Source: Pseudonocardiaceae bacterium
Lineage (GTDB): Bacteria; Actinomycetota; Actinomycetes; Mycobacteriales; Pseudonocardiaceae
Assembly: GCA_036503065.1 (NCBI GenBank)
Contig: DASXXM010000151.1
Location: 2,539-66,538, forward strand
Length of the DNA: 64,000 nt
Direction of reading: 5' to 3'
Both the position numbers and the translations under genes were made by a program. Of this stretch, positions 12,612 through 39,973 are shown piece by piece. Within the stretch, counting starts at the first letter, position 1. Each line of letters starts with the position of its first letter. The notes under the pieces were generated by a model that ran no database searches, had not been told where the DNA came from, and saw nothing but the letters and a program-made list of their open reading frames with translations.

Positions 12612-12613
12612 CC

Positions 12614-16323: not shown

Positions 16324-16349
16324 GCGCTCCTCCCTACCCTCTGGACCGG

Positions 16350-23883: not shown

Positions 23884-24099
23884 ATCGCCGATGTGAGTGC
23901 CGTGGCCGACCCGAACACCGGTGTCGCCGTCTTCGACAGCACCTCGTCCGGTGGCTTGTCGGGCTGGTTGGTGTTCGGTGGCACCAGTGTCGCGTCGCCG
24001 CTCATCGCCACCGTGTACGCGTTGGCGGGCAACGCATCCTCGGTCACCTACGCTTCGTTCCCCTACTCACACACGTCCTGGGCACCGCCGGTCAAGTGA
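23884..24099 (+). pseudogene. C-terminal fragment of an S8/S53 serine peptidase
   Basis: ADVSAVADPNTGVAVFDSTSSGGLSGWLVFGGTSVASPLIATVYALAG contains the catalytic-serine motif GTSxAxP. No upstream catalytic Asp/His (or Glu/Asp) region is present. Confidence 0.65.
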
Positions 24100-24865: not shown

Positions 24866-24881
24866 TGTCTGCTCGCTTTCG

Positions 24882-25502: not shown

Positions 25503-26497
25503 GACTGCGCCAGAATTCGGGTCATGGTCAGCTCGACCTCGGCGACGACGTTGCCGTCCTGCTCGATGACAACGGACATGTCGAGCGAGGAATCATCGGG
25601 AGCGGGCGGCGTGGCGCGAACGGTGACGGTCGAGTCCAGTTCCGCGAATCGCATGAACCTGCCGGCCAGCCTGGTGAGGTGCCAGTCCGCGATCGCGCGG
25701 CCCGATGCGGTCACCGCCGCCAGGGTCAACTGTCGGGCGGCCTCGGTGAGAATCTGCATCGTCACGTGGTCGTACGAATGGTCGAAGAGCGCGCGATTCG
25801 CCAGCGGCAGTGCCACCCGCGCCGACACCTCGCCGGCAGTATGCGCCAGACCCGCCAACACGACATTCAGCCGATCGCGCCTGCCCACCGTGTACGGCGC
25901 GACCAGTTCCGGGTCCCGCTGATCGACCAGGTCGGCCGTCCACGGCGGTGGATCACCCCGCTGCGCGGTACGGAGCAGGTCGAGTTCTTCATAGGCCAGG
26001 AACAAACTGCTGGCCTGCAGGGTGGCGATCTGCTGGCCCTTGACGAAGACCCGCTGCTGGCAGGTACCGGAGCGCGGCCGGCCGCGGCGCACGCGCGTCC
26101 AGGTGAACTCGCTGTCGACGCGCAACCCGATGACCGGGTCGTCACCGCGCCACGTTCCCGGCACGGCAACCCGCAGATCCCAGTCTTCGGTGATCAGCAC
26201 GACGCCCGTGGACACACCCAACTCGTAGGCGGTCGCAAGCCCCGCCTGCCGGCAGACCTCCATCATGAGAAGCGGATCCACCGCCGATTCGCTACCGAGG
26301 TGGTCGTTGAAGTACCGGTGACAGGTCGGCAGTTGCGCGGCAAGTGCGACTCGCCTGTCGCCCAGTGGCCGCACGTCGGTGATGAACACCTCGGAAACCG
26401 CTGCCCGGTGCACCATACGGCGATCGATCGTGCGATCGAAGGACAGCGCGATGTCCTCGTCGAGCTGCCATTCCGCTGCGACGCTGACGTCCGTCAC
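25499..26497 (-). CDS. AfsA/ScbA-family butenolide/gamma-butyrolactone synthase (double hot-dog)
   Basis: GTG start at 26497, 1 nt after the upstream stop. The two AfsA-repeat signatures are MVHRAAVSEVFITDV...CHRYFNDH and FDHSYDHVTMQILTEAARQL. Confidence 0.8.
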   Translation of the reverse strand: MTDVSVAAEWQLDEDIALSFDRTIDRRMVHRAAVSEVFITDVRPLGDRRVALAAQLPTCHRYFNDHLGSESAVDPLLMMEVCRQAGLATAYELGVSTGVVLITEDWDLRVAVPGTWRGDDPVIGLRVDSEFTWTRVRRGRPRSGTCQQRVFVKGQQIATLQASSLFLAYEELDLLRTAQRGDPPPWTADLVDQRDPELVAPYTVGRRDRLNVVLAGLAHTAGEVSARVALPLANRALFDHSYDHVTMQILTEAARQLTLAAVTASGRAIADWHLTRLAGRFMRFAELDSTVTVRATPPAPDDSSLDMSVVIEQDGNVVAEVELTMTRILAQS

Positions 26498-26498
26498 G

Positions 26499-26876
26499 CT
26501 ACGCGCCGCCGAACATGTACAGCGCGGTGATCTTGCCGGCGTCATCGCGGATGAGGAAGTCCCGACCCGTTCGGAGGATGTTGCCGCTGGCGTCCGCGAT
26601 GTCCCACTCCTGCTGGATCGAATCGTGGTTGGTCACCGTGTTACCGAAGCCGAAGACGAAACCCGCCCCTTGGATCTGCTCCTTGTTCACTTGGGCGATG
26701 TTCGCCTCGATCTCGTCGATGCCCGAGAAGCGGAGGTTCTCCCCCGCCACGTGGTGCACGGCGGATTCGGCGAAGACGTTGTGCACCAAGGCATGACGAC
26801 GTTCATCGTCGTGCGTCCGCCAGGCCTCGAGAAGATCACCCATGAGTTCTTTGGCTTCCATTTTCTTTCCTTTCAT
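26499..26876 (-). CDS. NTF2/SnoaL-like fold protein
   Basis: About 125 aa (MKGKKMEAKELMGDLLEAW...). It is a clear paralogue of 27710..28069: they share AVHHV, IDANIAQV/IEANIAQV and GRDFxxxDDxGxIxALYMF. Confidence 0.7.
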   Translation of the reverse strand: MKGKKMEAKELMGDLLEAWRTHDDERRHALVHNVFAESAVHHVAGENLRFSGIDEIEANIAQVNKEQIQGAGFVFGFGNTVTNHDSIQQEWDIADASGNILRTGRDFLIRDDAGKITALYMFGGA

Positions 26877-27298
26877 GTCAGGGCCGAGTAGAACCGCTCC
26901 AGCATCGGTATGTCGGACAGGTGGGTGTCGATGGTGGCGATGCGACCGGACCGGAGCGTGAAGACCAGGGCCAGCCATTCGTCGAGTTCGACGGGCCGTA
27001 CCGCCGTGTTGTGAATGGTCGCGACGATGCTGCGGTAGCCGATGAGCATGTGCTGTGGATCGACCGTAAGCTTGGCGGCATCGATTACCTGAGCCCTGGC
27101 CACCACGGCCTCCCGCCCGACCGCGAGTCCGGAGATCCGCGAATTGCCGGGCAGATACCAGACAACATCCGGATCAAGCAGTTCGGCCACCCGGTCCCAG
27201 TCCTGCCGCCTTGACGCGACCAGCATCTCCGTGACGACGGCGCGGTCTGCCCCAGTCACGATTTCCGTCTCTGTTGCCACGATGGCATCTTGTGACAT
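26873..27298 (-). CDS. NTF2/SnoaL-like fold protein (ketosteroid-isomerase-like)
   Basis: 141 aa with DPDVVWYLPGNSRISG. ATGA overlap with the downstream gene. Confidence 0.65.
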   Translation of the reverse strand: MSQDAIVATETEIVTGADRAVVTEMLVASRRQDWDRVAELLDPDVVWYLPGNSRISGLAVGREAVVARAQVIDAAKLTVDPQHMLIGYRSIVATIHNTAVRPVELDEWLALVFTLRSGRIATIDTHLSDIPMLERFYSALT

Positions 27299-27322
27299 AC
27301 CGGTACCCCTTCGATTCGATTA

Positions 27323-28065
<743 letters not shown>

Positions 28066-28069
<4 letters not shown>

Positions 28070-29484
28070 TGGTTCGTAACTTCCTTCACCGTTGTTGATG
28101 GGACAAGCATCTCGGCGTTCGCCGCCGGAGCAACCGGATTCGTCCGGGCTCCTGGAAGGATTGTAGCCACAACGAGCGACCCGACGCCCGCCACGCAAGC
28201 CGCCGCGACCATCGGGGCCGTCAGATTGTGAAAGCCTGTCGACGCCACACTTCCCATGATCGCGATTCCCAGAGCCCCACCGAGGTTCATCGCCACGTCG
28301 GCGACAGCGGAGCCGGCTGCCGACTGCTCGGCCGATGCGGCGCCTACGATCGATTCCACCGAGGTGGGAGCGCCGAATCCGATGCCGAGTCCGAGTACCC
28401 CGAGTGCGATGAGCACCCGCAGGCCCGACGGAGGCCCGCCGATCGCCATAAGAACCATGGACGCGGCGACCAGCAACGGGCCGAGCGCCGACACCGGTCC
28501 GAGTCCGAACCGCTGTACCAACTTGGGTGCTTGCGGCGCGACAAGAATCACCGTGCACATCCCGAGCAGGTGCAGCCCGGCGATCAGGGGACGGTCGTGC
28601 AAGGTGAGCTGCAAATACTGGGTTACTACGAACAAACCCCCGGTCACCCCGAAGAAGATGGTCGAGATCGTCACGAGCGGTCCGCCGAACAAGCGGTTGG
28701 AGAAGACGGCGTGACTGAGCATCGGGGTGCGCGTGCGCCGCTCCCACCAGATGAAGGTGGCCAGGACAGCAGCGCCACCAACGATGAGTGCCAGCGTGCG
28801 GGCCGACGTCCAGCCCTGTGACGGCGCCTCGATGATGCCGCCGACGAGCGCAAGCGAGCCGACGACCGAGAGCACCAGGCCAGGAATGTCCAAGCCGAGA
28901 TGGTTCTCGTTGCGGGATTCGGGGATCAGCAGCAGGCATCCGACGATCGCGGCGGCGATGATCGGAATATTGATCAGGAAGACCGAGCCCCACCAGAAGT
29001 TCTGCAGCAACAGTCCCCCGACGATCGGGCCCAACGGGACGCCCAGGGTGGCGACGCCCACCCAGAGCCCCATGGCCTTGGCCCGCTCCGCAGGTGGGAA
29101 CACGTCCCGCAGGATCGCGAGGGTGCAGGGCATGATCATGGCCGCACCCAGCCCCATACCGGCTCGGGCCGCGATCAGCATTTCCGGTGACCGGGCGAAG
29201 GCCGCTGCCGATGAGGCGGCGAGAAAGACCAGCAGACCGACGAGAAACCCGCGCCGACGACCGAAACGGTCCGCGAACGCGCCGAAGAAGAGGATCGGCG
29301 CGGCGAAGGCCAGCGCGTAGGCATCCACCGTCCACTGCAGCTGCCCGGTGGACGCGCCGAGCTCGGTTTTGATCGACGGCACCGCCATGGTGATGATCAG
29401 ACTGTCCAGAGCCGTGATGATCAGCGCAAGACACATGACGCCGAGGATCGCCCAACGGCGTGGGTGACCCGTGGTCGAGTTCAT
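28066..29484 (-). CDS. MFS efflux transporter, 14-TM DHA2 (EmrB/QacA)-like
   Basis: 472 aa. It has LDSLIITMAVPSI and the FGRRRGFLVG loop motif. Confidence 0.85.
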
Positions 29485-29526
29485 AGTGGCCTTTCCCGCA
29501 ACGATCAGCTCCTACAACGATCAAAG

Positions 29527-29568
29527 TTGACGTTGTCAATCTAGCGGGGTCGTGTTGACGGCGTCAAC
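29527..29568. promoter_or_regulatory. two palindromic candidate TetR operators in the MFS/TetR divergent region
   Basis: TTGACGTTGTCAA at 29527-29539 and GTTGACGGCGTCAAC at 29554-29568. Both have the form TTGAC-N3-GTCAA. Confidence 0.5.
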
Positions 29569-29585
29569 TACGTACCCTGCATGAT

Positions 29586-30200
29586 GTGAGTCAACCCACG
29601 GGCGATGTAGGCGCCGCGCTGGTGGCTGCGGCCAGCGACCTGCTGACGCGCGGCGGTCCCGAGTTCGTGACCCTGCGCGCGGTCGGCAGGGCAACCGGCG
29701 TGTCGCGCACGGCGCCGTACCGCCACTTCACCGACAAGGATGACCTGCTCAGTGCGGTAGCCGCGGAGAGCATGAATCGTCTCACCGAGGCGATGCGGCA
29801 CGGGGCGGCCGACGAGGCCGCGGGAGGGACGCCACTTTCCCGGGCCTGCCTCGGCTACGCGAGAGCCGCGATGGAGCGACCGGCCCACTATCGCCTCATG
29901 TTCGGCGACTTTCCGATCAACAGGCCGAGTGCGGAGCTCGAACGCGCGGCGGACGAGTGCGCCAAGGTGCTCTACGACCTCGTCGCCGAAGCCCAGAGCG
30001 AGGGCGTTCTCCCCGCGGTCGACGTACGCGAAGTCGGCACGTTGCTGTGGGCGGCACTGCATGGCTTGGTGGACCTCACACTGACTCGCCATCTCCATGA
30101 ACCGCGCACTGTCGACGGCGTCGATGCCATGCCGACCCTTGTCGCGGTTGCCATACAGAACTGGGTCACCGGCAAAGCCGCTCCCCACGTCCGATCGTAA
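29586..30200 (+). CDS. TetR/AcrR-family transcriptional regulator
   Basis: 204 aa. The HTH is TLRAVGRATGVSRTAPYRHFTDKDDLL. It is divergent from the efflux pump. Confidence 0.85.
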   Translation: MSQPTGDVGAALVAAASDLLTRGGPEFVTLRAVGRATGVSRTAPYRHFTDKDDLLSAVAAESMNRLTEAMRHGAADEAAGGTPLSRACLGYARAAMERPAHYRLMFGDFPINRPSAELERAADECAKVLYDLVAEAQSEGVLPAVDVREVGTLLWAALHGLVDLTLTRHLHEPRTVDGVDAMPTLVAVAIQNWVTGKAAPHVRS

Positions 30201-30342
30201 CGCGCTTCGACGGACGCCTCCCGTATTTGGCCACTGTTCGCGTGCAACCCATGGACGCGTTCCGTCGGTCGCAACGAAACCTGGGACTTCCCGTATCGTC
30301 GCCACTGCTCCGATGGAGCCATGGACGAAGGGAAGCCAAAAA

Positions 30343-31296
30343 ATGATGCGGAGAACAAGTCTGGCCGGCCTCGACGTGTCGGCACAGGGACTCGGCTGCA
30401 TGGGTATGAGCGAATGGTATGGCCCGACCGACTGGGACCGGTCGATCTCGACGATCCGGCGCGCTATCGACCTTGGCGTAACGCTTTTCGACACCGCCGA
30501 CATCTATGGTGCCGGTCACAACGAGGTGCTCGTCGGCCGTGCGATCACCGGGCACCCCGACGCCGTGCAGATCGCGACGAAGTTCGGCATCGATCGCAGC
30601 GCGGGCGACGGCAATCGAGTGCATCGCGGCGAGGCCGCCTACGTCAAGCGGTCGTGCGATGCGTCGCTGCTGCGACTCGGTATCGACACGATCGACCTGT
30701 TCTACCTGCACCGACCGCCGGACACCGCAGAAATCGAGGAGACGGTCGGCGCGATGGGTGAGTTGGTGGCCGAAGGCAAGGTGCGCCACCTAGGACTGTC
30801 TGATGTGGATAGTAGTCTGCTGCGCCGGGCACACGCGGTGCACTCGATTGCAGCAGTGCAGACCGAGTACTCGTTGTGGAGCCGCAAGCCCGAGTCGACG
30901 CTGTTGAACACTATGCGCGAGCTGGGTGTCGGGCTGGTGCCGTACGCGCCGCTCGGACGCGGCTTCCTTGCGGGCAGCGTGACCCGTGATTCGCTGGTGG
31001 ACAGTGACATCCGCACATCGCGACCCGCCATGCAGTCCTGGCAGGCGATCCCGTCTATCGCACAGGTCGTGGACTCGATCGCCGAGGCACAGGCGGTGAC
31101 ATCGGCGCAAGTCGCGCTCGCCTGGGTTTATGCCCAGGAGGTCCGCTGGGGCGTCCCCATCGTGCCGATTCCGGGTACGAAACGGGTGGCCTGGCTGGAG
31201 CAGAATGTGCGGGCGATGGACGTATCGCTCACGGACAGTGAGCGCGCCACTCTCGACGGTATTCCGGATCGGTCCGCGGCCGCACAGCAGGCGTAG
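30343..31296 (+). CDS. aldo/keto reductase
   Basis: Starts at MMRRTSLAGLDVSAQGLGCMGMS. Motifs are DTADIYG, IDLFYLHRPD-type and GLSDV. Confidence 0.85.
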   Translation: MMRRTSLAGLDVSAQGLGCMGMSEWYGPTDWDRSISTIRRAIDLGVTLFDTADIYGAGHNEVLVGRAITGHPDAVQIATKFGIDRSAGDGNRVHRGEAAYVKRSCDASLLRLGIDTIDLFYLHRPPDTAEIEETVGAMGELVAEGKVRHLGLSDVDSSLLRRAHAVHSIAAVQTEYSLWSRKPESTLLNTMRELGVGLVPYAPLGRGFLAGSVTRDSLVDSDIRTSRPAMQSWQAIPSIAQVVDSIAEAQAVTSAQVALAWVYAQEVRWGVPIVPIPGTKRVAWLEQNVRAMDVSLTDSERATLDGIPDRSAAAQQA

Positions 31297-31349
31297 CGGA
31301 AGGCCCGGCACGGCTTCGCGGCGTGACGAACGGCACGTTTGGCAGCAAG

Positions 31350-31378
31350 TTGACACCGTCCACGTCACTCGTTAGCGT
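31350..31378 (+). promoter_or_regulatory. sigma-70-like promoter candidate
   Basis: TTGACA, 17 nt, then TAGCGT (TANNNT). It lies about 70 nt upstream of the decayed ACP copy. Confidence 0.35.
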
Positions 31379-31444
31379 GGATCGTGCTGGAAGCTTGGGG
31401 AGCGGCAGCTAGGGGGAGATCAGCATATCGGGAGATGCAGATCA

Positions 31445-31944
31445 ATGTCGATTGATTCGCGCGCATACGAACATAAGACTATTCACGACGTCGTGGTCAA
31501 TCAGATCGCAGCCATCGGCAGGACACCGAGTTAATTTCACGTGACGCGACTCGTCGGACGCGTATAGAACGGCCACATTCGGCCAGGATCTCTGCAAACG
31601 GCTGCACTTCGGCCGGGCGGGAATTCAGTGACCAGACGGGTGGTCGTCACCGGCATCGGCGCGGTCACCCCCTCGGCATCGGCGCCGACACGCTGCACGC
31701 GGCTGCCGTACGCGGCGACAACGGAATTGTCGACGGCATGGGCCGATGTGCGGAATTCGACGGCCAGAAGATGCTCGGCCGCCGCGAAGCGCACCGGATG
31801 GACCGGTTCTGCCAGCTCGCCGTCGCGGCCGTCGATCGGGCCGGCTGGGCCGGCTGGGCCGGCTCGCCGCCGGTGCCGGCGCAGCGGGTGCCGTGTGTGA
31901 TCGGCACCGCGATCGGCGGGCTCAACACGATCGAGTCGCAGCTG
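31445..31944 (+). pseudogene. decayed duplicate of the ACP gene and the first ~320 nt of the KAS II gene
   Basis: MSIDSRAYEHKTIHDVVVNQIAAIG resembles MSAALSGYDRKSVEEFVIEQVEATG. The stretch 31600-31944 aligns by eye to 32600-32945, including the GGGAATTCAGTGA junction. The frame is lost after VVVTGIGAVTP by a 1-nt deletion, and there is a GGGCCGGCT triplication. Confidence 0.75.
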
Positions 31945-32103
31945 GCCACGCCCAGAAGCAGTCCGATCAATCAATGTTCAACCAACTCACCGCGTGGCTG
32001 CGAAATGCGCGTGCACACGATGGCATACGAAGGCAACCTCGACGTCACGAGATACACGTTGACTCCGCACGAAGTGCCGGCTACGCTCGTTCCCAAGCTC
32101 ATA

Positions 32104-32308
32104 TTCATGGGGATTCACTGGGGAATCAACCGCGACCGTGTCTTGAGTCGTGTGGGACAAGCAGATAATTCGTGATTTACCGAATTAGTGTCACTGAATC
32201 GCTGTCTACGGGCAACAGGGGGAACTGAGGCTCGGCTCCGACGGGGTGTGTTCATCGGGTGATTTCATTGGGGAAATCGACCACCAGGGTGTACTGAGTC
32301 GTGCTGAC
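32104..32308 (+). repeat. two ~55-nt direct repeats in the low-GC leader of the AfsA/FAS operon
   Basis: Copy 1 (32104-32158) is TTCATGGGGATTCACTGGGGAATCAACCGCGACCGTGTCTTGAGTCGTGTGGGAC. Copy 2 (32251-32308) is TTCATCGGGTGATTTCATTGGGGAAATCGACCACCAGGGTGTACTGAGTCGTGCTGAC. Confidence 0.6.
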
Positions 32309-32366
32309 GCACGGCTGGTTTGTGGTTGACCAATTTCTGAAAGCGACGAGCGACAAGGGGATAGCT

Positions 32367-32630
32367 ATGTCTGCTGCACTGTCCGGGTACGACCGAAAGT
32401 CGGTCGAGGAATTCGTCATCGAGCAGGTCGAGGCGACCGGCGCCGACCCCGACCTGATCGCCACCACGGCCACCCTCGAATCGCTCGGCCTCGACTCGCT
32501 GGACGTGGTTGAACTCAGCCAGGGCGTCAAGAAGCAGATGGGGATCCCGGTGAGCCCGAAGGACTTCGTCGACGCGCTGACCATCTCCGACGCGATCGCG
32601 GTCATCTGCCGTCAGGCGGGTATTCAGTGA
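32367..32630 (+). CDS. acyl carrier protein
   Basis: 87 aa, with AAGGGG upstream as RBS. The phosphopantetheine site is LGLDSLDVVEL. Confidence 0.85.
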   Translation: MSAALSGYDRKSVEEFVIEQVEATGADPDLIATTATLESLGLDSLDVVELSQGVKKQMGIPVSPKDFVDALTISDAIAVICRQAGIQ

Positions 32631-33832
32631 TTCGACGGGTGGTCGTCACCGGCATTGGCGCGGTCACCCCGCTCGGCATCGGAGCCGACACGTTGCACCT
32701 GGCCGCCGTGCGTGGCGACAGCGGGATCGTCGACGGCGTCGGTCGGTGCCGGGACTTCGACGCGGCGAAGCTGCTCAGCCGCCGCGAGGCGCATCGGATG
32801 GACCGCTTCAGCCAATTCGCCGTCGTCGCCGCGGACGAAGCCGTCGAACAGGCGGGCTGGGCCGGCGCGCCGCCGGTGCCGGCCCAGCGGGTGCCGTGCG
32901 TGATCGGCACCGCGATCGGCGGCCTCAGCACCATCGAGTCGCAGCTCGAGACACTGCGCATCGAGGGTGCCGAGTACGTGTCGCCGCTGACCGTGCCGAT
33001 GCTGATGGGCAATGCCGCCGCGGCACAGCTGTCGATGCGGTACGGCCTGCGCGGCGAAGCCTCCGCGCTGGTCGCGGCGTGCTCCGGCGGGGCGCAGGCC
33101 ATCGTGGCGGGTGTCCGCGCGATCCGCTCCGGCGAGGCCGACGCGGCACTCGTCGGCGGCGCGGAGGCCGCGATCACCGAGTTCACCATGGCGATCTTCA
33201 CCGCTGCCGGCGCGCTGTCGCCGAGCGGGCGATCGGTGCCGTTCGACCGGAAGCGGGACGGCTTCCTACTCGGCGAAGGTGCCGGCGTCCTGGTACTCGA
33301 AGAGGCCGAGGTGGCGCGGGCACGGGGCGCCCGGGTGCTCGGCGAGATCCTGGGCTACGGCGTGACGACCGACGCCTACCACGTGACGGCCCCCGAGCCC
33401 TCCGGCGTCGCGGCCGCGGCCGCGGTGCGCGCCGCACTGGCCGACGGCGGGATCGACGCAGGCCAGGTTGCGTACATCAACGCGCACGGGACCGGCACGG
33501 CACTCAACGACAGCGCGGAGGTGAACGCGTTGCGTGCCGCGCTCGGCGACGCGCTCGCCGGCATCCCGATCTCCTCGACCAAGTCGTATCTCGGCCACCT
33601 GATCGGCGCGGCGGGCGCGGTCGAGGCGATCGCGACGCTACAGGCGCTCCGGCACCGGATCGCGCCACCGACGTGCGGACTCACCGAACCCGACGAGGCC
33701 CTCGGCGAGCTCACGCACGTACCGGCGGCACTGCCACTGGCACGGTCCGGTGCCGACCGTGTCGGGTTGACCAACTCGATGGGCTTCGGCGGTCACAACG
33801 TGACCATCGCGATCAGGGCGTGGGAAAGATGA
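32627..33832 (+). CDS. beta-ketoacyl-ACP synthase II (FabF-type, Cys-His-His)
   Basis: 401 aa with a GTGA overlap onto the ACP gene. Motifs are VAACSGGAQAI, INAHGTGT and KSYLGHLIGAAG. Confidence 0.85.
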   Translation: MIRRVVVTGIGAVTPLGIGADTLHLAAVRGDSGIVDGVGRCRDFDAAKLLSRREAHRMDRFSQFAVVAADEAVEQAGWAGAPPVPAQRVPCVIGTAIGGLSTIESQLETLRIEGAEYVSPLTVPMLMGNAAAAQLSMRYGLRGEASALVAACSGGAQAIVAGVRAIRSGEADAALVGGAEAAITEFTMAIFTAAGALSPSGRSVPFDRKRDGFLLGEGAGVLVLEEAEVARARGARVLGEILGYGVTTDAYHVTAPEPSGVAAAAAVRAALADGGIDAGQVAYINAHGTGTALNDSAEVNALRAALGDALAGIPISSTKSYLGHLIGAAGAVEAIATLQALRHRIAPPTCGLTEPDEALGELTHVPAALPLARSGADRVGLTNSMGFGGHNVTIAIRAWER

Positions 33833-34827
33833 GCGTAGACGTCAGCGACTTGCCGAGACAGCTCAATTGGCCGATGCCCGAGCCGGAACTGCTCGGGATG
33901 CGCAACACGACAACCGTCGATCGGCGCCTCGCGCACAAAGAATCCACCGAACAGGTGTTCATCAACGACGTGGCGCGCGACGGTGAAACGCTCGTCGCGC
34001 TCGGTGAACTACCGCGGTCGCACCGGTTCTTCAATGATTCCGCGATACCGCGCTACGACGCGTTGCTGCTCGCCGAGTTCATTCGACAGGGTGTCGAGGT
34101 CATCGCACACGCGTTGCTCGATGTGCCGCTGACCAGCCAGTTCGTCCTACGTTCGGTAGAACTGGAGCTGGTCGACCGACAGGCGACGGTGATCGGTGAC
34201 CGGGCGATGCCGGTTGTCGTCGCGCTGCCCGCCAGTCAGGTGCGGCGCAATCGCGGCGGCATGGCATACGCGGCGACCGGGCCGGTGTACTGCTTTATCG
34301 ACGGCCGCCCGGCCGCGCGGTTCGGCGGCAAGGTCGGATTCCTGGCCTGTGACACCTACGGCGAAATCCGTGCGGCCGCACCGCTCGGCGTGCCGGGTGG
34401 CTCGGTTGCCGCGTGCGAGCCGCGGGCCGTCGGCAGGCAGTTCCGGGAGAACGTCTTCATCGGCAGGCCGTGGGGATATCCGCGCGGGGCGAAGTGCCTT
34501 GTCGTGCCGCGGCCGCATCCGGCCTTCTTCGACCGGCCGCTGGACCACTACCCCGGCATGATGCTCGCCGAGGCGGCACGCCAACTGGCCGCGAGTTCGC
34601 TGGCCGCGGACGCGCACGTCCCGATCTCGTCCGTGTGCACGGACTATGCCGCCATGGACTTCGTGTCCTTCGCCGAACTCGACACGTCGCCGACTTTGAC
34701 GGTGGTCGACTGGATCGACCTTGACGACGGCGCCGAGCTGACGGTCACCGCCCGGCAAGGCGCCCGCACCATGTCGACGTACACCTTCCGGATGTTCCAC
34801 GACGACTACAGCGAGGATCGGTCATGA
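33829..34827 (+). CDS. AfsA/ScbA-family butenolide/gamma-butyrolactone synthase, second copy
   Basis: Starts at MSVDVSDLPRQ with an ATGA overlap. Signatures are HKESTEQVFINDV...SHRFFNDS and FFDRPLDHYPGMMLAEAARQL. It is hidden inside the artefactual 693-aa ORF 32746..34827. Confidence 0.8.
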   Translation: MSVDVSDLPRQLNWPMPEPELLGMRNTTTVDRRLAHKESTEQVFINDVARDGETLVALGELPRSHRFFNDSAIPRYDALLLAEFIRQGVEVIAHALLDVPLTSQFVLRSVELELVDRQATVIGDRAMPVVVALPASQVRRNRGGMAYAATGPVYCFIDGRPAARFGGKVGFLACDTYGEIRAAAPLGVPGGSVAACEPRAVGRQFRENVFIGRPWGYPRGAKCLVVPRPHPAFFDRPLDHYPGMMLAEAARQLAASSLAADAHVPISSVCTDYAAMDFVSFAELDTSPTLTVVDWIDLDDGAELTVTARQGARTMSTYTFRMFHDDYSEDRS

Positions 34828-35798
34828 CGGCGATCGTGTCCGGGGTCGGCGCCGCGCTGCCCGAGACGGCAGTGGACAACGACGCGTTCGGGGCGCTCGG
34901 CGTCACCGATGAGTGGATCGTCGGCCGAACCGGGGTTCGGCGGCGCTACTGGCTCAAGCCGGACGAGCGACTTGTCGACCTCGCGGCGGCGGCGAGTGCG
35001 ACCGCACTGGCCGACGCCGGGGCCGACGCCGCGGACGTGGACTTCGTGATCGCCGCGACGACGACACCCGACCGCGTCTCACCGGGACTGGCGCCCGAGA
35101 TCGCCCATCTGCTCGGCATTCCGCGGGCCGGCGCGGTCGATATGAACGGGGCGTGCACGGGCTTTCTCTATGCCCTGGACTATGCGCTGAATCGGGTCGA
35201 GGCCGGCTCCGCGGATCGCATTCTCGTCATCGGCGCCGATGCCATGTCACGGATCACCGACGAGTCCGATCGCAATACGGCGGTGCTGTTCGGCGATGCC
35301 GCGGGGGCGGTCGTGGTCGAGGCGGCACGGGGCGCCGCTTGCGACGGCTGCGCCCAGTACCTGTCCTTCGGATCGGCGGGCGAGCACGCCGATTCGCTGT
35401 GCGTGGACCGGGAAACCGGGGTCGTGCGAATGGACGGGGGCGAGGTCTACGCGTACGCCGTTGACGCGATGGCGAACGAGATCGAGGCGGTGCTGCTCGC
35501 CTGTGAGGTCGAACAGGACGATGTCGACCTGCTGGTGTGTCACCAGGCCAACAGCCGGATCGTCAACGCCGTCGCGCGGCGACTGAAATGGGGCGTCGAC
35601 CGCGCCGCCTGTTACGTGGATCAGTTCGGGAACACCTCGTCGGCGTCCATTCCGGTGGCCATGTGGCAGGCGCAGGCCGACGGCAGGCTCAAGCCGGGGC
35701 ACCGGGTCGGGCTCAGCGCCTTCGGGGCCGGATTCACCTGGGGCGCGGGCGTCATCAACTGGAAAGGGTGCGGTCACGCGGGTCAGCAGGCCGGCTGA
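34824..35798 (+). CDS. beta-ketoacyl-ACP synthase III (FabH-type)
   Basis: 324 aa. The Cys-His-Asn triad contexts are MNGACTGFLYAL, LVCHQANSRI and FGNTSSASIP. Confidence 0.85.
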   Translation: MTAIVSGVGAALPETAVDNDAFGALGVTDEWIVGRTGVRRRYWLKPDERLVDLAAAASATALADAGADAADVDFVIAATTTPDRVSPGLAPEIAHLLGIPRAGAVDMNGACTGFLYALDYALNRVEAGSADRILVIGADAMSRITDESDRNTAVLFGDAAGAVVVEAARGAACDGCAQYLSFGSAGEHADSLCVDRETGVVRMDGGEVYAYAVDAMANEIEAVLLACEVEQDDVDLLVCHQANSRIVNAVARRLKWGVDRAACYVDQFGNTSSASIPVAMWQAQADGRLKPGHRVGLSAFGAGFTWGAGVINWKGCGHAGQQAG

Positions 35799-35837
35799 TC
35801 AGAAATAGCCCAGCACAGACCGAGGGAGCGGAGTGAA

Positions 35838-36902
35838 GTGCTTAATCTGGATCACCTGAACGGCTCGGACCACATGCCCGGTTCGACGGCCGCAACCGCG
35901 TTGTCGGTCCGCGATGACGAGGAGACGATACTGCTGCGCGGCTACCGGGCCATGGTCATCGGCCGCCGGTTCGACCAGCAGGCGACCAACCTCGCCAAGC
36001 AGGGTTATCTTGCGGTGTATCCCTCGTCGTACGGACAGGAAGCCTGCCAGATCGGCGCGGTGTCGGCACTGCGTGCGACGGACTGGCTGTTTCCCACGTA
36101 TCGCGACTCGATGGCCATCGTGACGCGAGGCGTCGACCCGGCGCAGACCCTGACTCTGCTGCGCGGTGACTGGCACTGCGGCTACGACCCGGCAGCCACG
36201 CGCACCGCGCCGCACTGCACGCCACTGGCCACCCAGGCATCGCACGCCGTCGGGCTGGCCATGGCGGCGCGACTGGCGGGTGACGACACGGTTGCCGTCG
36301 TGCTCTGCGGCGACGGCTCCACGAGCGAGGGCGACTTCCACGAGGCGGTCAACCTGGCGGCCGTGTTCGCCGCACCCGTGGTGTTCCTGGTGCAGAACAA
36401 CGGATATGCGATCTCGGTCCCGCTGGCCAAGCAGACCAGGGCGCGCTCGCTCGCGGCGAAGGCGCCCGGCTACGGCATCCCGGGGGTCCAGATCGACGGC
36501 AACGACCTGCCCGAGGTGTACGCGGCGATGACGGCGGCCGTCGAGTTGGCGCGCGGCGGTGGCGGGCCCACCCTGATCGAGGCGATCACCTACCGCGTCG
36601 GACCGCACACCAACGCCGACGACCCGTCCCGCTATCGCGACGAGGCCGAGGCACTCGCGTGGCGGCGCAAGGACCCGATCGATCGGCTCGGCGCCACCCT
36701 GCGCGCACGTGGCCTGCTCGACGACGACCTGCAGCAGGCGATCGACGCCGATGCCGAGGAGTTCGCGGCACGGACCCGGCGCACGGTGATCGAGTACCCC
36801 GCGCCGACGGCCGCGGAGATGTTCGCGCACGTGTACGCCGCGTTGCCACCACACCTGGCCGAGCAGGCCGACCGCTACGGCCGCGAAGGCGGTGCCGCAT
36901 GA
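35838..36902 (+). CDS. 2-oxoacid dehydrogenase E1 alpha subunit (BCKDH/PDH type, ThDP-dependent)
   Basis: 354 aa with a GTG start after GAGGGAGCGGAG. The ThDP motif region is CGDGSTSEGDFHEAVNLAAVFAAPVVFLVQNNGYAIS. Confidence 0.85.
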   Translation: MLNLDHLNGSDHMPGSTAATALSVRDDEETILLRGYRAMVIGRRFDQQATNLAKQGYLAVYPSSYGQEACQIGAVSALRATDWLFPTYRDSMAIVTRGVDPAQTLTLLRGDWHCGYDPAATRTAPHCTPLATQASHAVGLAMAARLAGDDTVAVVLCGDGSTSEGDFHEAVNLAAVFAAPVVFLVQNNGYAISVPLAKQTRARSLAAKAPGYGIPGVQIDGNDLPEVYAAMTAAVELARGGGGPTLIEAITYRVGPHTNADDPSRYRDEAEALAWRRKDPIDRLGATLRARGLLDDDLQQAIDADAEEFAARTRRTVIEYPAPTAAEMFAHVYAALPPHLAEQADRYGREGGAA

Positions 36903-37918
36903 CAACGGATGTCGCGTCCACTGTGGACGTCAAGCAGAGGGTTGCCACGGTTTCCATGGTCAAGGCGATCAACACCGCGTTGCGCGACGCGATGCTCGCG
37001 GACGACCGCGTGGTGATGTTCGGCGAGGACGTCGGCCGACTCGGGGGCGTGTTCCGGGTGACCGAGGGACTTTCCGCACGGTTCGGCGATGAGCGCTGTT
37101 TCGACACGCCGATCGCCGAGGCCGGGATTCTCGGCGCGGCGATCGGTATGGCCGTCTACGGCGCCCGGCCCGTGGTGGAGATGCAGTTCGACGCGTTCGC
37201 CTACCCCGCGTTCGAACAGATCATCAGTCACCTGGCCAAGATGCGGAACCGGACGCGGGGCGCGCTCAGCACGCCGGTCGTCGTGCGGGTGCCCTACGGC
37301 GGCGGCATCGGCGCGGTGGAGCACCACAGCGACTCGTCCGAGGCCTACATGACGCACACTCCCGGGCTGCACATCGTGACACCGGCCACGGTGTCCGACG
37401 CGTACGGCCTGTTGCGGCAGGCGATCAGGGGCGCGGACCCGGTGCTGTTCTTCGAGCCGAAGCGCCTGTACTGGGACACCGAGGAACTCGCGTTGCCGGT
37501 CGAAGTGGAGCCGATCGGCCGGGCCGTGGTACGCAGGCCCGGCACCGACGTCACCCTGATCACGTACGGGCCCGCGCTGCCGCTGGCGCTGGCGGCCGCG
37601 GACGCCGCCGCGGAGGCCGGTTACGACGTGGCCGTGGTCGATCTGCGGTCGCTGGTGCCGTTCGACGAGGACACCGTGTGCGATGCGGTGACGAAGACCG
37701 GTCGCGCCGTGGTGGTGCACGAGGCATCGGGATTCGGCGGGTTCGGCGCGGAGGTGGCCGCTCGGGTGACCGAGCGGTGCTTCAACTATCTGGAGGCGCC
37801 GGTGCGCCGGGTGACCGGACTGGACGTGCCGTACCCGCCGCCGCAGTTGGAACGCTTCTACCTGCCGACCGTCGGCCGAATCCTGGACGCCATCGCGACC
37901 ACGTTCGGAGATTCGTAA
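36899..37918 (+). CDS. 2-oxoacid dehydrogenase E1 beta subunit
   Basis: 339 aa with an ATGA overlap. Motifs are FGEDVGRLGGVFRVTEGL and DTPIAEAGILGAAIGMA. Confidence 0.85.
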   Translation: MTTDVASTVDVKQRVATVSMVKAINTALRDAMLADDRVVMFGEDVGRLGGVFRVTEGLSARFGDERCFDTPIAEAGILGAAIGMAVYGARPVVEMQFDAFAYPAFEQIISHLAKMRNRTRGALSTPVVVRVPYGGGIGAVEHHSDSSEAYMTHTPGLHIVTPATVSDAYGLLRQAIRGADPVLFFEPKRLYWDTEELALPVEVEPIGRAVVRRPGTDVTLITYGPALPLALAAADAAAEAGYDVAVVDLRSLVPFDEDTVCDAVTKTGRAVVVHEASGFGGFGAEVAARVTERCFNYLEAPVRRVTGLDVPYPPPQLERFYLPTVGRILDAIATTFGDS

Positions 37919-38430
37919 TGGATCGCCTGACCGAATGCGTGTTCCGGCTGCCCGATCTCGGCGAGGGCCTGGTGTCCGGCGAGATCATCGAATGGCTCGT
38001 CAAGGTCGGCGAGCAGGTCGAGGTGGACCAACTGGTCGTGGTGGTCGAGACGGAGAAGACCACCGTCGAACTGCCGATCCCCTTCGGGGGAACGGTGGTT
38101 CGGCTGCACGGCGAGCCCGCGGACCGGCTGCCGGTCGGCGCGCCGCTGGTCACCATCGAGGCGGCGGAAGTCCCGGACCGGCCGGCGAGCGCGATCACCC
38201 ATCTCGTCGGGCAGGGTCCGAACCTGGCTGCCGCGGACGCCGACGACCGGCTGGCCGGCATTCGCAGGCTGCCGCAGAAGACACAGCGCGAGCGTGTCGC
38301 GGCATCGCCCGCGGTGCGCCGACTGGCCCGCGAACTGGACGTGGACCTGAGCGGCGTCGTCGGCACCGGTATGGGCGGCGCGATCACGAAGGACGACGTG
38401 TCCGCCGCGAGCCGGAATGCCGAAAGCTGA
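37918..38430 (+). CDS. truncated E2: lipoyl domain plus E1/E3-binding domain only, no acyltransferase core
   Basis: 170 aa with a TAATG overlap. The lipoyl-lysine context is VVVETEKTTVELP. The subunit-binding domain is ASPAVRRLARELDVDLSGVVGTGMGGAITKDDV. The ORF then ends, and the next gene is MaoC-like. Confidence 0.8.
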   Translation: MDRLTECVFRLPDLGEGLVSGEIIEWLVKVGEQVEVDQLVVVVETEKTTVELPIPFGGTVVRLHGEPADRLPVGAPLVTIEAAEVPDRPASAITHLVGQGPNLAAADADDRLAGIRRLPQKTQRERVAASPAVRRLARELDVDLSGVVGTGMGGAITKDDVSAASRNAES

Positions 38431-38885
38431 TGGCGACCTTCGACAGCATCGACGCGCTGACCGCGGCCGTTGGCCAGACGCTGGGCACCACCGAGTGGCA
38501 GGTGGTGTCGCAGGAGCGAATCCGGGCGTTCGCGGACGTCACGGGTGACCATCAGTGGATTCATGTGGACGAGGAGCGTGCTCAGGTCGAGAGCCCGTTC
38601 GGCACGACGGTCGCGCACGGGGCGCTCACGCTGGCGCTGGTGCCGGTGTTCGTGGGCGAACTGGTCCGGGTGCCCGGCGCCAGCATGGTGGTCAACGGCG
38701 GACTGGAGCGGGTCCGCTTTCGCGCGCCGGTGCCGGCAGGGGCCAAGGTGCGCGGAATGGTCAAGCTGCTGAGCACGGTCGAACTGGCCGACGCGACGCA
38801 GGTGGTCGCGCGGGCCACCGTGCAGGTGTACGGGGAACAGAAACCGGCGTGCGTCGCTGATCAGGTGATGGTGTTGCATGACTGA
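38430..38885 (+). CDS. MaoC-like (R)-specific enoyl-CoA hydratase/dehydratase
   Basis: 151 aa with the hot-dog motif FADVTGDHQWIHVDEERA. Confidence 0.8.
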   Translation: MATFDSIDALTAAVGQTLGTTEWQVVSQERIRAFADVTGDHQWIHVDEERAQVESPFGTTVAHGALTLALVPVFVGELVRVPGASMVVNGGLERVRFRAPVPAGAKVRGMVKLLSTVELADATQVVARATVQVYGEQKPACVADQVMVLHD

Positions 38886-39711
38886 CGAACCCGCGGTGCG
38901 CCGCGAAACGTTCGGTTCCGTGGTGTTGCTGACGATGAACCGCCCGGCACGCGGCAACACGTTGGACGCCGAGGTACTCGACGGACTCGTCACGCACACC
39001 ACCGAACTGGTCGACGACGACAACGTGCGCGCGCTCGTGCTGACCGGCGCGGGCGAGCATTTCTCGCTTGGCGGCGCGCTGACCGATTTCGAGGAAGCGC
39101 TGTCCGGCGGTGCACACGGTGCGCTCAGGTACTGCAAGGAACGCACCGAAGCGCTGGCGACTGTCGTGTTGAATCTGTTCGACATGCCGTTTCCGGTGAT
39201 CGCCGCGGTGAACGGGCAGGCGGCCGGCGCCGGTTTCTCCCTGACGCTGGCCTGTGACCTTCGGATCGCTGCCCAGCACGCAAAGCTGCATTTCGCGTAC
39301 GGCTCGCTCGGGGCGTCCACCGACGGCGGGATGAGCTGGCTGCTGCCCAGGGTGGTCGGTCCGGCTCGAGCACTGGCGCTGCTGCTGGAACAGCCGATCA
39401 TCCGGACGCCACGGGCCAGGCAGGAGGGTCTGGTCACCGAGGTGGTGCCGGCCGCGGAATTGCGCGACCGAGCATTGCGAATGGCGACGGACCTCAGCCA
39501 GAACGCGCGTCATTCGGTCACCGCGGCAAAGCGGCTCGTGCATGCGTCGGCGTTTGCCACGCTGGCCGAGCACATGCGAGAGGAACACCGTACGTTCGGC
39601 GACGGCCTGCTCGGTCCGGACATGCGGACCGCGCTCGCCGCTCGTCGGATCGGCGAGATGCCTTCGTTCGGTCTATCTGGAGGAAGCGATGAGTATCAGC
39701 CAGTCCGATAA
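38878..39711 (+). CDS. enoyl-CoA hydratase/isomerase (crotonase) family protein
   Basis: 277 aa. Motifs are LTGAGEHFSLGG and AAVNGQAAGAGFSLTLACDLRIA. Confidence 0.8.
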   Translation: MTDEPAVRRETFGSVVLLTMNRPARGNTLDAEVLDGLVTHTTELVDDDNVRALVLTGAGEHFSLGGALTDFEEALSGGAHGALRYCKERTEALATVVLNLFDMPFPVIAAVNGQAAGAGFSLTLACDLRIAAQHAKLHFAYGSLGASTDGGMSWLLPRVVGPARALALLLEQPIIRTPRARQEGLVTEVVPAAELRDRALRMATDLSQNARHSVTAAKRLVHASAFATLAEHMREEHRTFGDGLLGPDMRTALAARRIGEMPSFGLSGGSDEYQPVR

Positions 39712-39973
39712 CATGTCAGCCGCGCCGGCCGACATTACGGACCTACGCGAGGAGATCGACCGGCTTGATTCGGAGATCCTGCGGTTGGTGAAGCGCAGGG
39801 CGGCGGTGTCGCAGGACATCGGTCGGCAGCGGATGGCGTCCGGTGGTACCCGGATCGTGGTCAGCCGGGAAATGGCGGTGCTGAATCGGTATCGCGAGCT
39901 GGGGCCGGAAGGTCGACAACTGGCCATGGCGCTGCTGACTCTTGGCCGCGGTCGATTGGGACGAGTCCTGTAA
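39689..39973 (+). CDS. AroQ-class chorismate mutase (small, CM_2)
   Basis: 94 aa with GGAGGA as RBS. The sequence is LREEIDRLDSEILRLVKRRAAVSQDIGRQR...SREMAVLNRY. It overlaps the crotonase 3' end by 23 nt. Confidence 0.7.
   Translation: MSISQSDNMSAAPADITDLREEIDRLDSEILRLVKRRAAVSQDIGRQRMASGGTRIVVSREMAVLNRYRELGPEGRQLAMALLTLGRGRLGRVL

Follow-up and report, generated by a model that had tools for sequence, protein, structure and literature searches.

Gene content and layout of the cluster

The stretch of DNA considered here (the window) covers 64,000 nucleotides of contig DASXXM010000151.1 from a Pseudonocardiaceae bacterium (assembly GCA_036503065.1). An earlier note had described ten plus-strand genes in it as one operon built around an AfsA-like synthase of signalling lactones. 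Pfam agreed with all ten genes, both in their coordinates and in their domains. We found that they form one of the two operons, the right-hand one, of a biosynthetic gene cluster (BGC) of ~16 kb, at 24092-39973, whose product class is uncharacterised. The operon stood as described, but the full unit is about twice as large and has a second AfsA, a HAD phosphatase and a short-chain reductase (SDR) on the minus strand. This divergent minus-strand operon, at 24092-29484, was found by Pfam scans of the flanks and by tblastn with a Streptomyces relative. The plus-strand operon is preceded by a TetR regulator and then an aldo-keto reductase (AKR), after which the ten genes follow. The earlier note did not mention the minus-strand half, the TetR gene (29586-30200) or a partial duplicate of two operon genes at 31446-31950.

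In total, 19 cluster genes were predicted. All of their reading frames are intact, and the encoded proteins were 55-86% identical to orthologues over their full length in comparisons with related loci. Those that need a number below are L008 (Streptomyces), L010 (Micromonospora echinospora), L012 (a metagenomic relative), L013 (Amycolatopsis sp. CA-126428), L014 (a Roseobacteraceae metagenome-assembled genome, MAG), L015 (an Actinomycetota MAG), and L020 and L021 (Rothia dentocariosa). The features of the cluster are as follows.

23679-23864, minus strand: partial duplicate (relic) of the C-terminal part of the cluster SDR; 54% identity to residues 192-252 of the Streptomyces SDR (tblastn), weak adh_short_C2 match
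24092-24865, minus strand: FabG-like SDR, 257 aa; 83% identical to the Streptomyces cluster SDR, passes NCBIfam PRK12826.1-2 (246.5 vs 222 bits)
24882-25502, minus strand: HAD-family phosphatase; Pfam Hydrolase/HAD_2, NCBIfam HAD-IA; 4-bp overlap with the AfsA2 stop
25499-26497, minus strand: AfsA2, second AfsA-family double hot-dog protein, 332 aa, GTG start; PF03756 E 3.5e-35, two repeats
26499-26861, minus strand: NTF2/SnoaL-like small protein b, 120 aa; sub-threshold SnoaL_4/SnoaL_2, 63% identical to a 120-aa protein of the Streptomyces cluster
26873-27298, minus strand: SnoaL_2-like protein, 141 aa; PF12680 E 3.6e-9, 78% identical to the Streptomyces cluster SnoaL
27366-27590, minus strand: C-terminal relic of a class II 3-deoxy-D-arabino-heptulosonate 7-phosphate (DAHP) synthase; tblastn and six-frame reading
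27710-28069, minus strand: NTF2/SnoaL-like small protein c, 119 aa; sub-threshold SnoaL_2 (24.9 bits), 63% identical to a 119-aa protein of the Amycolatopsis cluster
28066-29484, minus strand: DHA2-type MFS efflux transporter, first gene of the minus-strand operon; MFS_1 E 5.9e-48
29527-29539 and 29555-29567, MFS/TetR divergent promoter region: two perfect copies of the 13-bp palindrome TTGACNNNGTCAA (pattern search)
29586-30200, plus strand: TetR-family regulator with a TetR_C_33 (WHG-type) C-terminal domain (Pfam)
30340-31296, plus strand: AKR; PF00248 E 9e-67, 80% identical to its L015 counterpart, also located after TetR
31350-31378, plus strand: probable operon promoter, TTGACA (31350-31355), 17 nt, TAGCGT (31373-31378) (pattern search)
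31446-31950, plus strand: degenerate partial duplicate, with the 5' end of the acyl carrier protein (ACP) gene at 31446-31535 and the 5' end of the ketosynthase II (KAS II) gene, with a 1-nt deletion, at 31628-31950 (translations, DNA alignment)
32367-32630, plus strand: dedicated ACP, 87 aa, DSL serine; PP-binding E 6.9e-10
32627-33832, plus strand: KAS II, FabF-type elongating ketosynthase; ketoacyl-synt and Ketoacyl-synt_C, NCBIfam PRK07314 (413 vs 387 bits)
33829-34827, plus strand: AfsA1, divergent AfsA-family double hot-dog acyltransferase; PF03756 E 6.8e-34
34824-35798, plus strand: KAS III, FabH-type initiating ketosynthase; Pfam, PRK09352 (326.6 vs 249 bits)
35838-36902, plus strand: 2-oxoacid dehydrogenase E1 alpha, the thiamine diphosphate (ThDP) subunit; E1_dh E 1e-75
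36899-37918, plus strand: 2-oxoacid dehydrogenase E1 beta; Transket_pyr and Transketolase_C, 77-86% identity across actinobacterial loci
37918-38430, plus strand: short E2 protein (E2'), 170 aa, lipoyl and peripheral-subunit-binding domains; Biotin_lipoyl and E3_binding only
38430-38885, plus strand: MaoC-type (R)-specific enoyl hydratase/dehydratase; PF01575 E 6.2e-23
38878-39711, plus strand: crotonase-fold protein, PaaG-like, isomerase-type; ECH_1 E 2.3e-41
39689-39973, plus strand: AroQ chorismate mutase, housekeeping high-GC type; CM_2, passes PRK07857 and TIGR01808

The ten genes are tightly packed, and start/stop overlaps of the kind reported earlier were seen at most junctions. These are GTGA at ACP/KAS II, ATGA at KAS II/AfsA1, AfsA1/KAS III and E1 alpha/E1 beta, TAATG at E1 beta/E2' and TGATG at E2'/MaoC. 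MaoC overlaps the crotonase gene by 8 bp, which in turn overlaps the chorismate mutase gene by 23 bp, and the GGAGGA ribosome-binding site of the latter lies within the 3' end of the crotonase gene. The sole gap is the 39 bp from KAS III to E1 alpha. On the minus strand, the gene for protein c overlaps the MFS stop by 4 bp.

Related loci and conservation of the cluster

When one genome per species was scanned, no close relative turned up, with 57% identity for the best AfsA match, but seven loci shared the gene order. Across 11 loci, from Streptomyces, Micromonospora, Amycolatopsis, Nocardia, Acidimicrobiales, an Actinomycetota MAG, Roseobacteraceae/Rhodobacteraceae and Rothia dentocariosa, the set of SDR, ACP, KAS II, AfsA1, KAS III, E1 alpha, E1 beta, E2' and crotonase is conserved. 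AfsA2 and the HAD phosphatase accompany it in seven of the 11, and the two genes adjoin each other in six related loci. Judged from their predicted proteins, these loci are a conserved family defined by two AfsA paralogues, a private set resembling a type II fatty acid synthase (FAS), and an E1 alpha/beta pair with an E2 that is a lipoyl carrier only. The gene order therefore recurs in other taxa, but the searchable literature, outside which most subscription-journal papers lie, yielded neither a characterised cluster of such gene content nor a characterised product, enzyme or regulator of the family; this absence is not proof.

The layout varies among the members. In Streptomyces it is collinear, with MFS on the minus strand, then TetR, ACP and the following genes to the crotonase, and then SnoaL, NTF2, AfsA2, HAD and SDR; MaoC is missing from the Streptomyces versions. 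The Acidimicrobiales genome has the divergent two-operon layout seen in the window, and L015 carries an AKR as well as an intact DAHP synthase. In Amycolatopsis sp. CA-126428 (L013, 8824-12289), a TPR/MalT-like gene and a gene for an uncharacterised protein interrupt the cluster after E1 alpha, and this copy is broken because E1 beta and everything beyond it are missing. Micromonospora echinospora (L010, 12042-20201) has four extra genes. Three of them, placed between KAS III and E1 alpha, encode a HemN/ChuW-like radical SAM protein, an alpha/beta hydrolase and an FAD amine oxidase. The product of the fourth, which is situated between E2' and MaoC, is an aldehyde dehydrogenase and passes a model for succinic-semialdehyde dehydrogenase. 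In the closest metagenomic relative (L012), whose AfsA1 is 72% identical, a FabD-like acyltransferase gene (Acyl_transf_1, 15996-16970) follows the crotonase and occupies the place where the window has chorismate mutase. In the Roseobacteraceae MAG (L014, 1757-3287), the cluster directly adjoins a luxI/luxR pair (Autoind_synth, Autoind_bind), which suggests that it may be under, or cross-talk with, acyl-homoserine-lactone quorum sensing.

Rothia dentocariosa (L020, 1-9739; L021, 1-12538), assigned by the names of neighbouring proteins and represented also by a complete genome, has the cluster with two AfsA genes, FAS-like genes, E1 alpha/beta and E2', followed by a 4'-phosphopantetheinyl transferase gene. 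Its order is MFS, AfsA2, HAD, SnoaL, SDR, ACP, KAS II, AfsA1, KAS III, E1 alpha, E1 beta, E2', MaoC and crotonase. It differs from the window in the added transferase, in the absence of TetR, AKR, chorismate mutase and DAHP synthase from the region examined, and in an AfsA1 that is only 28% identical. The Rothia proteins fall into protein clusters of hundreds to >1700 member sequences from public metagenomes. This species has an orphan 'butyrolactone' BGC in antiSMASH surveys (PMC10668837; Uranga et al. 2020, PMC7190385), which is likewise uncharacterised.

Two AfsA paralogues

Both AfsA proteins scored well above the PF03756 gathering threshold of 24 bits. AfsA1, in which the earlier note had already seen an AfsA-like double hot-dog, reached 117.2 bits with two repeats, and AfsA2 reached 121.4 bits in two stretches. 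Against the ScbA_BarX equivalog (NCBIfam NF041195, cut-off 200), they aligned over their full length and scored 162.9 and 160.3 bits, respectively, both below the cut-off. The two proteins are only 25% identical to each other, whereas each is 37-69% identical to its own counterpart in other taxa (43-69% for the AfsA2 orthologues), and each forms a separate orthologue group. Therefore, AfsA1 and AfsA2 are ancient paralogues that have been inherited together. The AfsA1 sub-clade is small: from 1.84 billion proteins, 33 of 1171 cluster representatives of the AfsA family match it at E<=1e-30.

The expected motifs are kept in both proteins, namely ExxRQ in repeat 1, and (E/D)xxRQ and DH in repeat 2. 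In AfsA alignments of 12 and 38 sequences, E83, R86 and Q87 were invariant, and D239/H240, R251 and Q252 were invariant or nearly so. They probably correspond to the ScbA residues E78, E240 and R243, which are reported to be essential. An AlphaFold2 model of AfsA1 had a pLDDT of 90.3 and a pTM of 0.91. Its top Foldseek matches in the PDB were all double hot-dog proteins (the dehydratase domain of polyketide synthases, TesB, FatA and the product-template domain of PksA), with TM-scores of 0.45-0.55 and identities of <=17%. A sequence search found no solved AfsA structure.

AfsA2, HAD and SDR form the synthase/phosphatase/reductase trio that is typical of classical lactone loci, such as AfsA-BprA of S. 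griseus, ScbA/B/C-ScbR of S. coelicolor, SabA/P/D of S. ansochromogenes and MmfL/H/P of the methylenomycin furans. The cluster resembles these loci in its tandem hot-dog PF03756 enzymes, in the HAD phosphatase and FabG-like SDR directly downstream of AfsA2, in the AKR after TetR and in the adjacent TetR-family regulator. It differs from them as follows. It has two AfsA proteins, both below the ScbA/BarX cut-off; it has its own ACP, KAS III, KAS II, dehydratase, crotonase and E1 alpha/beta with E2', instead of a supply from primary FAS; and its regulator is of the TetR_C_33 type, fails the ScbR model and has the probable operator TTGACNNNGTCAA.

A private set of fatty-acid-synthase-like enzymes

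ACP, KAS II and KAS III, all dedicated to the cluster, are encoded in one operon, and every related locus has them. The private nature of this set, as well as the catalytic residues attributed to the two ketosynthases, was borne out by the Pfam domains and the translations. KAS II has the motifs ACSGG, HGTGT and GHLIGAAG, which contain its Cys, His and His, and the Cys-His-Asn triad of KAS III aligned to C112, H244 and N274 of E. coli FabH. In KAS III, the equivalents of Trp32 and Arg36 are invariant and that of Arg151 is kept in six of eight family members. At the position of FabH Phe87, which caps the primer pocket, all eight family members have Ser. Among solved FabH structures, the one from S. 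aureus is closest.

The SDR is a candidate ketoreductase of this private FAS or of the lactone side chain. The nearest solved structure of the MaoC protein is the (R)-hydratase Rv0130 of M. tuberculosis (145 bits). The best NCBIfam matches of the crotonase are an alternative-type oxepin-CoA hydrolase and PaaG, both under the cut-off, and its best solved relatives are the Thermus crotonase-fold entries 3HRX and 6SL9/A/B, which we presume to be PaaG, and the E. coli 1,2-epoxyphenylacetyl-CoA isomerase (4FZW_C). We also considered whether MaoC and the crotonase, together with the aldehyde dehydrogenase in Micromonospora, are a split PaaZ/PaaG ring-opening set of a tropone-like pathway. This reading is weak because MaoC scores 145 bits to Rv0130 against 29 bits to PaaZ, and because there is no PaaABCE oxygenase. 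From it we retained only the PaaG-likeness of the crotonase, as a hint.

The 2-oxoacid dehydrogenase unit and its short E2

The E1 proteins had been called branched-chain 2-oxoacid dehydrogenase (BCKDH)-type. Their assignment to the 2-oxoacid dehydrogenases held, but the narrower label is not established. E1 alpha passes the NCBIfam model PDH_E1_alph_x (TIGR03181; 417 vs 411 bits), and its nearest solved relative is the E1 alpha of Geobacillus pyruvate dehydrogenase (PDH; 1W85, 229 bits), against 176-194 bits for BCKDH E1s. Actinobacterial members of TIGR03181 include true BCKDHs. The unit resembles the PDH/BCKDH complexes of Gram-positive bacteria in its heterotetramer-type E1 alpha and beta with a ThDP motif (GDG...NN in the translation of E1 alpha), and in the N-terminal lipoyl domain (lipoyl-lysine motif ETEKT) and subunit-binding domain of E2'. 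It differs from them in the lack of the E2 core in every family member, in the lack of any detected dihydrolipoamide dehydrogenase (E3) in the cluster, and in the position of its genes between KAS III and the dehydratase.

As the earlier note had recognised, E2' has lipoyl and subunit-binding domains only. The 2-oxoacid_dh acyltransferase core (PF00198) was not found in E2', and MaoC starts at the E2' stop codon. More than 50 clusters of E2' homologues were all 160-220 aa long, with lipoyl and E3-binding domains and without PF00198, and wherever a related locus reaches past E1 beta, its E2 has this short form. Therefore, the E2 without a catalytic core is a conserved feature of the family rather than a product of decay. 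No E3 gene was found among the ORFs scanned at 22-52 kb or in the related loci, so E3 would have to come from primary metabolism.

It follows that an acyl group on the lipoyl arm of E2' would need another way to KAS III. A housekeeping E2 core acting in trans, KAS III itself taking the acyl-lipoyl arm, and another cluster protein are possible routes. Direct priming from the lipoyl arm through a loss of CoA binding by KAS III was unsupported, as the Trp32 and Arg36 equivalents are invariant and that of Arg151 is kept in most members; Trp32 and Arg36 contact CoA in E. coli FabH, and the retention of their equivalents argues for an acyl-CoA primer. Priming of KAS III by a lipoyl carrier was not described in the searchable literature (again, most subscription-journal papers lie outside it).

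Regulator, operators and the role of the product

The claim that no receptor gene is adjacent was not supported. The TetR gene lies 2.2 kb upstream of ACP and is divergent from the MFS exporter gene, and conserved operators precede both operons. In Streptomyces, Amycolatopsis and the Actinomycetota MAG, the ACP operon likewise comes after an MFS gene on the minus strand and a TetR gene on the plus strand, and the TetR protein of the window is 75-84% identical to those of L008, L013 and L015. Its best NCBIfam match is ScbR_bind_reg (NF041196), whose cut-off of 150 bits it misses by far (41.5 bits), and its match to CprB is weak (residues 9-117 only, E 2.2e-5). By these scores, TetR is not a receptor of the ArpA/ScbR class; it is a conserved cluster regulator and not a demonstrated lactone receptor.

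Alignment of the MFS/TetR intergenic regions of Streptomyces, Amycolatopsis and the MAG brought out TTGACNNNGTCAA, two perfect copies of which lie in the window between the divergent genes. A generic inverted-repeat search had missed it because the arms of the palindrome are only 5 nt long. It is also found just upstream of ACP in the Streptomyces loci (two copies), L012, L013 and L015. These palindromes are probable TetR operators. In the window, a copy with one mismatch (31350-31362) overlaps the predicted TTGACA-17-TAGCGT promoter, and GTTGACnnnGTCA, followed by TAGCGT or TAGCTT, is conserved 5' of ACP in L008, L012, L013 and L015. This promoter/operator (31350-31378) coincides with the start of the interval singled out by the earlier note.

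The exporter belongs with efflux pumps in its best NCBIfam matches (SmvA, LfrA, EmrB family) and is 74-78% identical to the cluster MFS proteins of L008, L013 and L015. The pairing of a drug-efflux-type DHA2 pump with a TetR that fails the ScbR receptor model raises an alternative for the role of the product. It might be a bioactive end product instead of an autoregulator, for example an enzyme-inhibiting phosphorylated or doubly acylated butenolide with a salinipostin- or cyclipostin-like role, and the TetR/MFS pair would then serve self-protection and export. The size of the cluster (~17 genes) is far above that of classical hormone loci, and with two AfsA paralogues the scaffold could become acylated twice. 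Non-hormone pathways with AfsA homologues are also known, those of salinipostin (PMC8209734) and gladiofungin/gladiostatin. Against this, the HAD phosphatase argues for removal of the phosphate, the salinipostin-specific Pfams are not found, and the luxI/luxR pair beside the Roseobacter cluster, together with the spread over commensals, also fits signalling. We consider an end-product role unlikely.

The salinipostin cluster (spt1-9) of Salinispora and the spt-like clusters (Creamer et al. 2021, PMC8209734) were compared with the window as well. They resemble it in having an AfsA homologue, Spt9, in a multi-gene pathway with an ACP, and differ in having no E1 alpha/beta with E2', no KAS III/KAS II and no second AfsA. 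Among the genes at 22-48 kb there was no match to Spt1 (PEP-utilising, PF00391/PF01326), Spt5 (reductase, PF07993), Spt6 (nucleoside diphosphate kinase, PF00334), Spt7 (UbiA, PF01040) or Spt8 (luciferase-like). Hence, a salinipostin/cyclipostin-type cluster was rejected. In several actinomycete families, the same study noted Spt9 homologues that form a clade and have as neighbours a pair of 3-oxoacyl-ACP synthases together with an ACP, a hydrolase and a 3-oxoacyl-ACP reductase (PMC8209734). This clade is probably the present cluster family.

Relics and rearrangement in this copy

Three relic fragments were found in this copy of the cluster, from the C-terminal part of SDR, from a DAHP synthase and from the 5' ends of ACP and KAS II. 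The partial SDR copy lies just beyond the intact SDR and marks a rearrangement breakpoint. The DAHP synthase relic, which had been noticed before, is 88% identical to residues 368-442 of the 455-aa class II DAHP synthase of L015 (E 6e-39); its N-terminal ~367 codons are gone and its last codons are frameshifted. The ACP/KAS II duplicate has a mean column identity of 79% to 32361-32990. Its KAS II part, 66% identical to KAS II residues 15-112 (tblastn), is far better conserved than its ACP part, which is strongly diverged and has internal deletions. After the duplicate, ~350 bp of lower-GC sequence without recognisable homology extend to ~32300. Degenerate sequence of 0.9 kb separates the conserved promoter/operator from the functional ACP. 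The GC content of the window is high (64-72%), with a dip across 24-32 kb.

These observations could mean that the cluster in this MAG is a decaying remnant that makes no product, in which the inverted AfsA2 block, the truncated DAHP synthase and the ACP/KAS II duplicate reflect loss of function. The relics, the degenerate stretch behind the promoter and the lower GC across 24-32 kb would all agree with that. However, the 19 frames are intact and retain their full-length identity to orthologues, the catalytic motifs are undamaged, the overlapping start/stop junctions are kept on both strands, and the divergent two-operon layout occurs in the Acidimicrobiales genome too. A remnant without function is thus very improbable.

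Source of the starter unit

A 2-oxoacid substrate of aromatic type had been suggested earlier from the chorismate mutase and the DAHP synthase relic. Our comparison strengthened this suggestion, since an intact class II DAHP synthase is found in two relatives, but it also showed that the chorismate mutase occurs in this locus only, and the suggestion stays unproven. In the Actinomycetota MAG and in Amycolatopsis, the intact DAHP synthase ends the exporter operon, and the two proteins are 83% mutually identical. The relic in the window is at the same cluster position, and a DAHP_synth_1 fragment follows the cluster in L012. Several other observations point in the same direction: the recruitment of chorismate mutase into the operon, the invariant Ser of KAS III at the Phe87 position, the closeness of the crotonase to PaaG-type isomerases of phenylacetyl-CoA metabolism, and the FAD amine oxidase directly 5' of E1 alpha in the Micromonospora variant. 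On this evidence the likeliest starter is an arylacetyl group from phenylpyruvate or 4-hydroxyphenylpyruvate, a tentative assignment to which we give slightly less than even odds.

There are precedents for such a supply. In the Streptomyces tropolone trl cluster, a DAHP synthase and a chorismate mutase/prephenate dehydratase feed phenylpyruvate (PMC7497051). The styrolide (sto) and acaterin (aca) clusters of Pseudomonas have the same proposed logic as the window, a likeness at the level of description (Klapper et al. 2020, PMC7154651). In the proposed sto route, 4-hydroxyphenylpyruvate is oxidatively decarboxylated to an activated arylacetate, KAS III extends it with malonyl, the AfsA-like StoB esterifies a C3 phosphate, and a Knoevenagel condensation closes the ring (PMC7154651). 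The sto cluster differs in using a pyruvate-flavodoxin oxidoreductase, StoA, in place of E1 alpha/beta and a lipoyl carrier. It has a single AfsA-like gene and lacks KAS II, and it includes an AMP ligase and other reductases. As only the logic matches, and the decarboxylating enzyme and accessory genes differ by description, we set the styrolide cluster aside as a homologue at the level of gene content.

The chorismate mutase needs separate consideration. It is 70-85% identical to chorismate mutases of Pseudonocardiaceae, which lie beside uvrD in Amycolatopsis, Prauserella and Sciscionella, and by these similarities it is a housekeeping-type copy relocated into the operon. Because it is absent from every other cluster, it represents a lineage-specific recruitment, and we rejected it as a conserved cluster gene.

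The same architecture could instead use an aliphatic 2-oxoacid, either branched-chain (2-oxoisovalerate, 2-oxoisocaproate) or pyruvate/2-oxobutyrate. In that case one would expect a lactone with a short or iso-branched chain, of the A-factor or virginiae-butanolide type, and the shikimate genes would be incidental neighbours. E1 alpha/beta belong to the PDH/BCKDH heterotetramer family, and the closest solved FabH is from S. aureus, an enzyme that uses branched-chain primers. The Streptomyces, Roseobacter and Rothia clusters have no shikimate genes, and the known lactone hormones carry branched alkyl chains. On the other hand, a private E1 alpha/beta with E2' is hard to justify for branched chains because the housekeeping BCKDH already supplies branched-chain acyl-CoAs in actinomycetes. 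The DAHP synthase at a fixed cluster position in three taxa, the insertion of chorismate mutase into the operon with an overlapping start, and the invariant Ser at the Phe87 gatekeeper position, which suggests a bulkier primer, also speak against it. We regard an aliphatic starter as somewhat unlikely.

Proposed pathway

Taken together, the product is most likely a small molecule of the butenolide or butyrolactone type with a chain that would be built by the cluster's own enzymes. From the known chemistry of the 2-oxoacid dehydrogenases, E1 alpha/beta would oxidatively decarboxylate a 2-oxoacid and place the acyl group on the lipoyl arm of E2'. The acyl group would pass to KAS III, either as acyl-CoA by a further transfer or straight from the lipoyl arm, and KAS III would join it to malonyl-ACP on the cluster ACP. 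Ketoreduction by the FabG-like SDR, dehydration by MaoC and isomerisation by the PaaG-like crotonase may optionally follow, and at least one extension by KAS II would give a beta-ketoacyl-ACP. By analogy with AfsA/ScbA, AfsA1 would move this chain to a C3 phosphate such as dihydroxyacetone phosphate (DHAP), and aldol closure would yield a butenolide phosphate. More speculatively, the HAD phosphatase and the SDR/AKR reductases might finish the core, AfsA2 might carry out a second acyl transfer or make a parallel congener, and the NTF2-like proteins might aid cyclisation or isomerisation. The MFS pump would export the product. Given the conserved operators, TetR would repress both operons at TTGACNNNGTCAA until its ligand, probably the product, builds up.

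We put the probability of this reading, a bipartite cluster family with two AfsA proteins, a private FAS-like set and E1 alpha/beta with E2' that operates through the proposed pathway, at about 0.6. The following points weigh against it. Because both AfsA proteins score under the ScbA/BarX cut-off, their acceptor may differ from DHAP. No enoyl reductase was found in the cluster, which does have the FabG-like SDR and the MaoC dehydratase. KAS III retains its CoA contacts, yet no cluster enzyme would transfer the acyl group from lipoyl to CoA. By its sequence, E1 is PDH/BCKDH-like. The lack of shikimate genes in the Streptomyces, Roseobacter and Rothia versions and the restriction of chorismate mutase to this locus also have to be counted here. 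Finally, the three relic fragments mean that this copy may be partly degraded.

Neighbouring regions

Downstream of chorismate mutase, Pfam identified DUF7711, GntR, an FAA-hydrolase family gene, a Liv-type ABC transporter and an RHS toxin. The cluster end was set at 39973 because none of these neighbours recurs in the related loci. The RHS/YD-repeat protein (48396-52427, minus strand, 1343 aa) has 15 RHS repeats and DUF6531 and is followed by small ORFs; it is likely to be a polymorphic toxin locus unrelated to the lactone-type cluster. Scans with tRNA and Rfam models gave no match, and a scan for consensus promoters and terminators gave nothing informative.

A small cluster resembling those of nonribosomal peptide synthetases (NRPS) lies 10-20 kb upstream, at 2147-13801, with the following genes.

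2147-3178, minus strand: pyridoxal phosphate (PLP)-dependent enzyme
4820-6547, minus strand: ABC exporter
6544-8307, minus strand: A-T (adenylation-thiolation) didomain protein
8483-9901, minus strand: FAD amine oxidase-like protein
9987-12611, plus strand: A-FkbM methyltransferase-T protein
12614-13801, plus strand: free-standing condensation domain

An extracytoplasmic function (ECF)-type sigma factor fused to DUF6596 (13793-15346) lies between the NRPS-like genes and the region of the lactone-type cluster.

Implications

Synthesis of the bacterial 'hormones' that turn antibiotic production on starts with AfsA enzymes. To our knowledge, almost all characterised examples take their acyl chain from primary metabolism and have an ArpA-type receptor as a partner. 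The family described here is not categorically new as a type, since AfsA chemistry, FAS-like priming and TetR/MFS control are all of known kinds. Its unexplained points of interest are the occurrence of two AfsA proteins together, the E2 that is only a lipoyl carrier, and the reach into human oral and marine microbiota. A stronger claim is that two AfsA enzymes act in sequence and that a free-standing lipoyl carrier hands a starter, probably arylacetyl, to a private KAS III/ACP without CoA transfer catalysed by E2, giving a new lactone or furan class. We find this claim doubtful. If true, such a class would be shared between actinomycetes from soil, Roseobacters from the sea and Rothia dentocariosa, a ubiquitous commensal of the human mouth.

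Because the family is compact (~15 genes) and is present in culturable Streptomyces, Micromonospora and Rothia, its product and priming mechanism are directly testable. With Rothia dentocariosa and Roseobacters among the hosts, the product could serve as a cross-phylum signal or be a bioactive compound, in marine habitats and in the human mouth alike.

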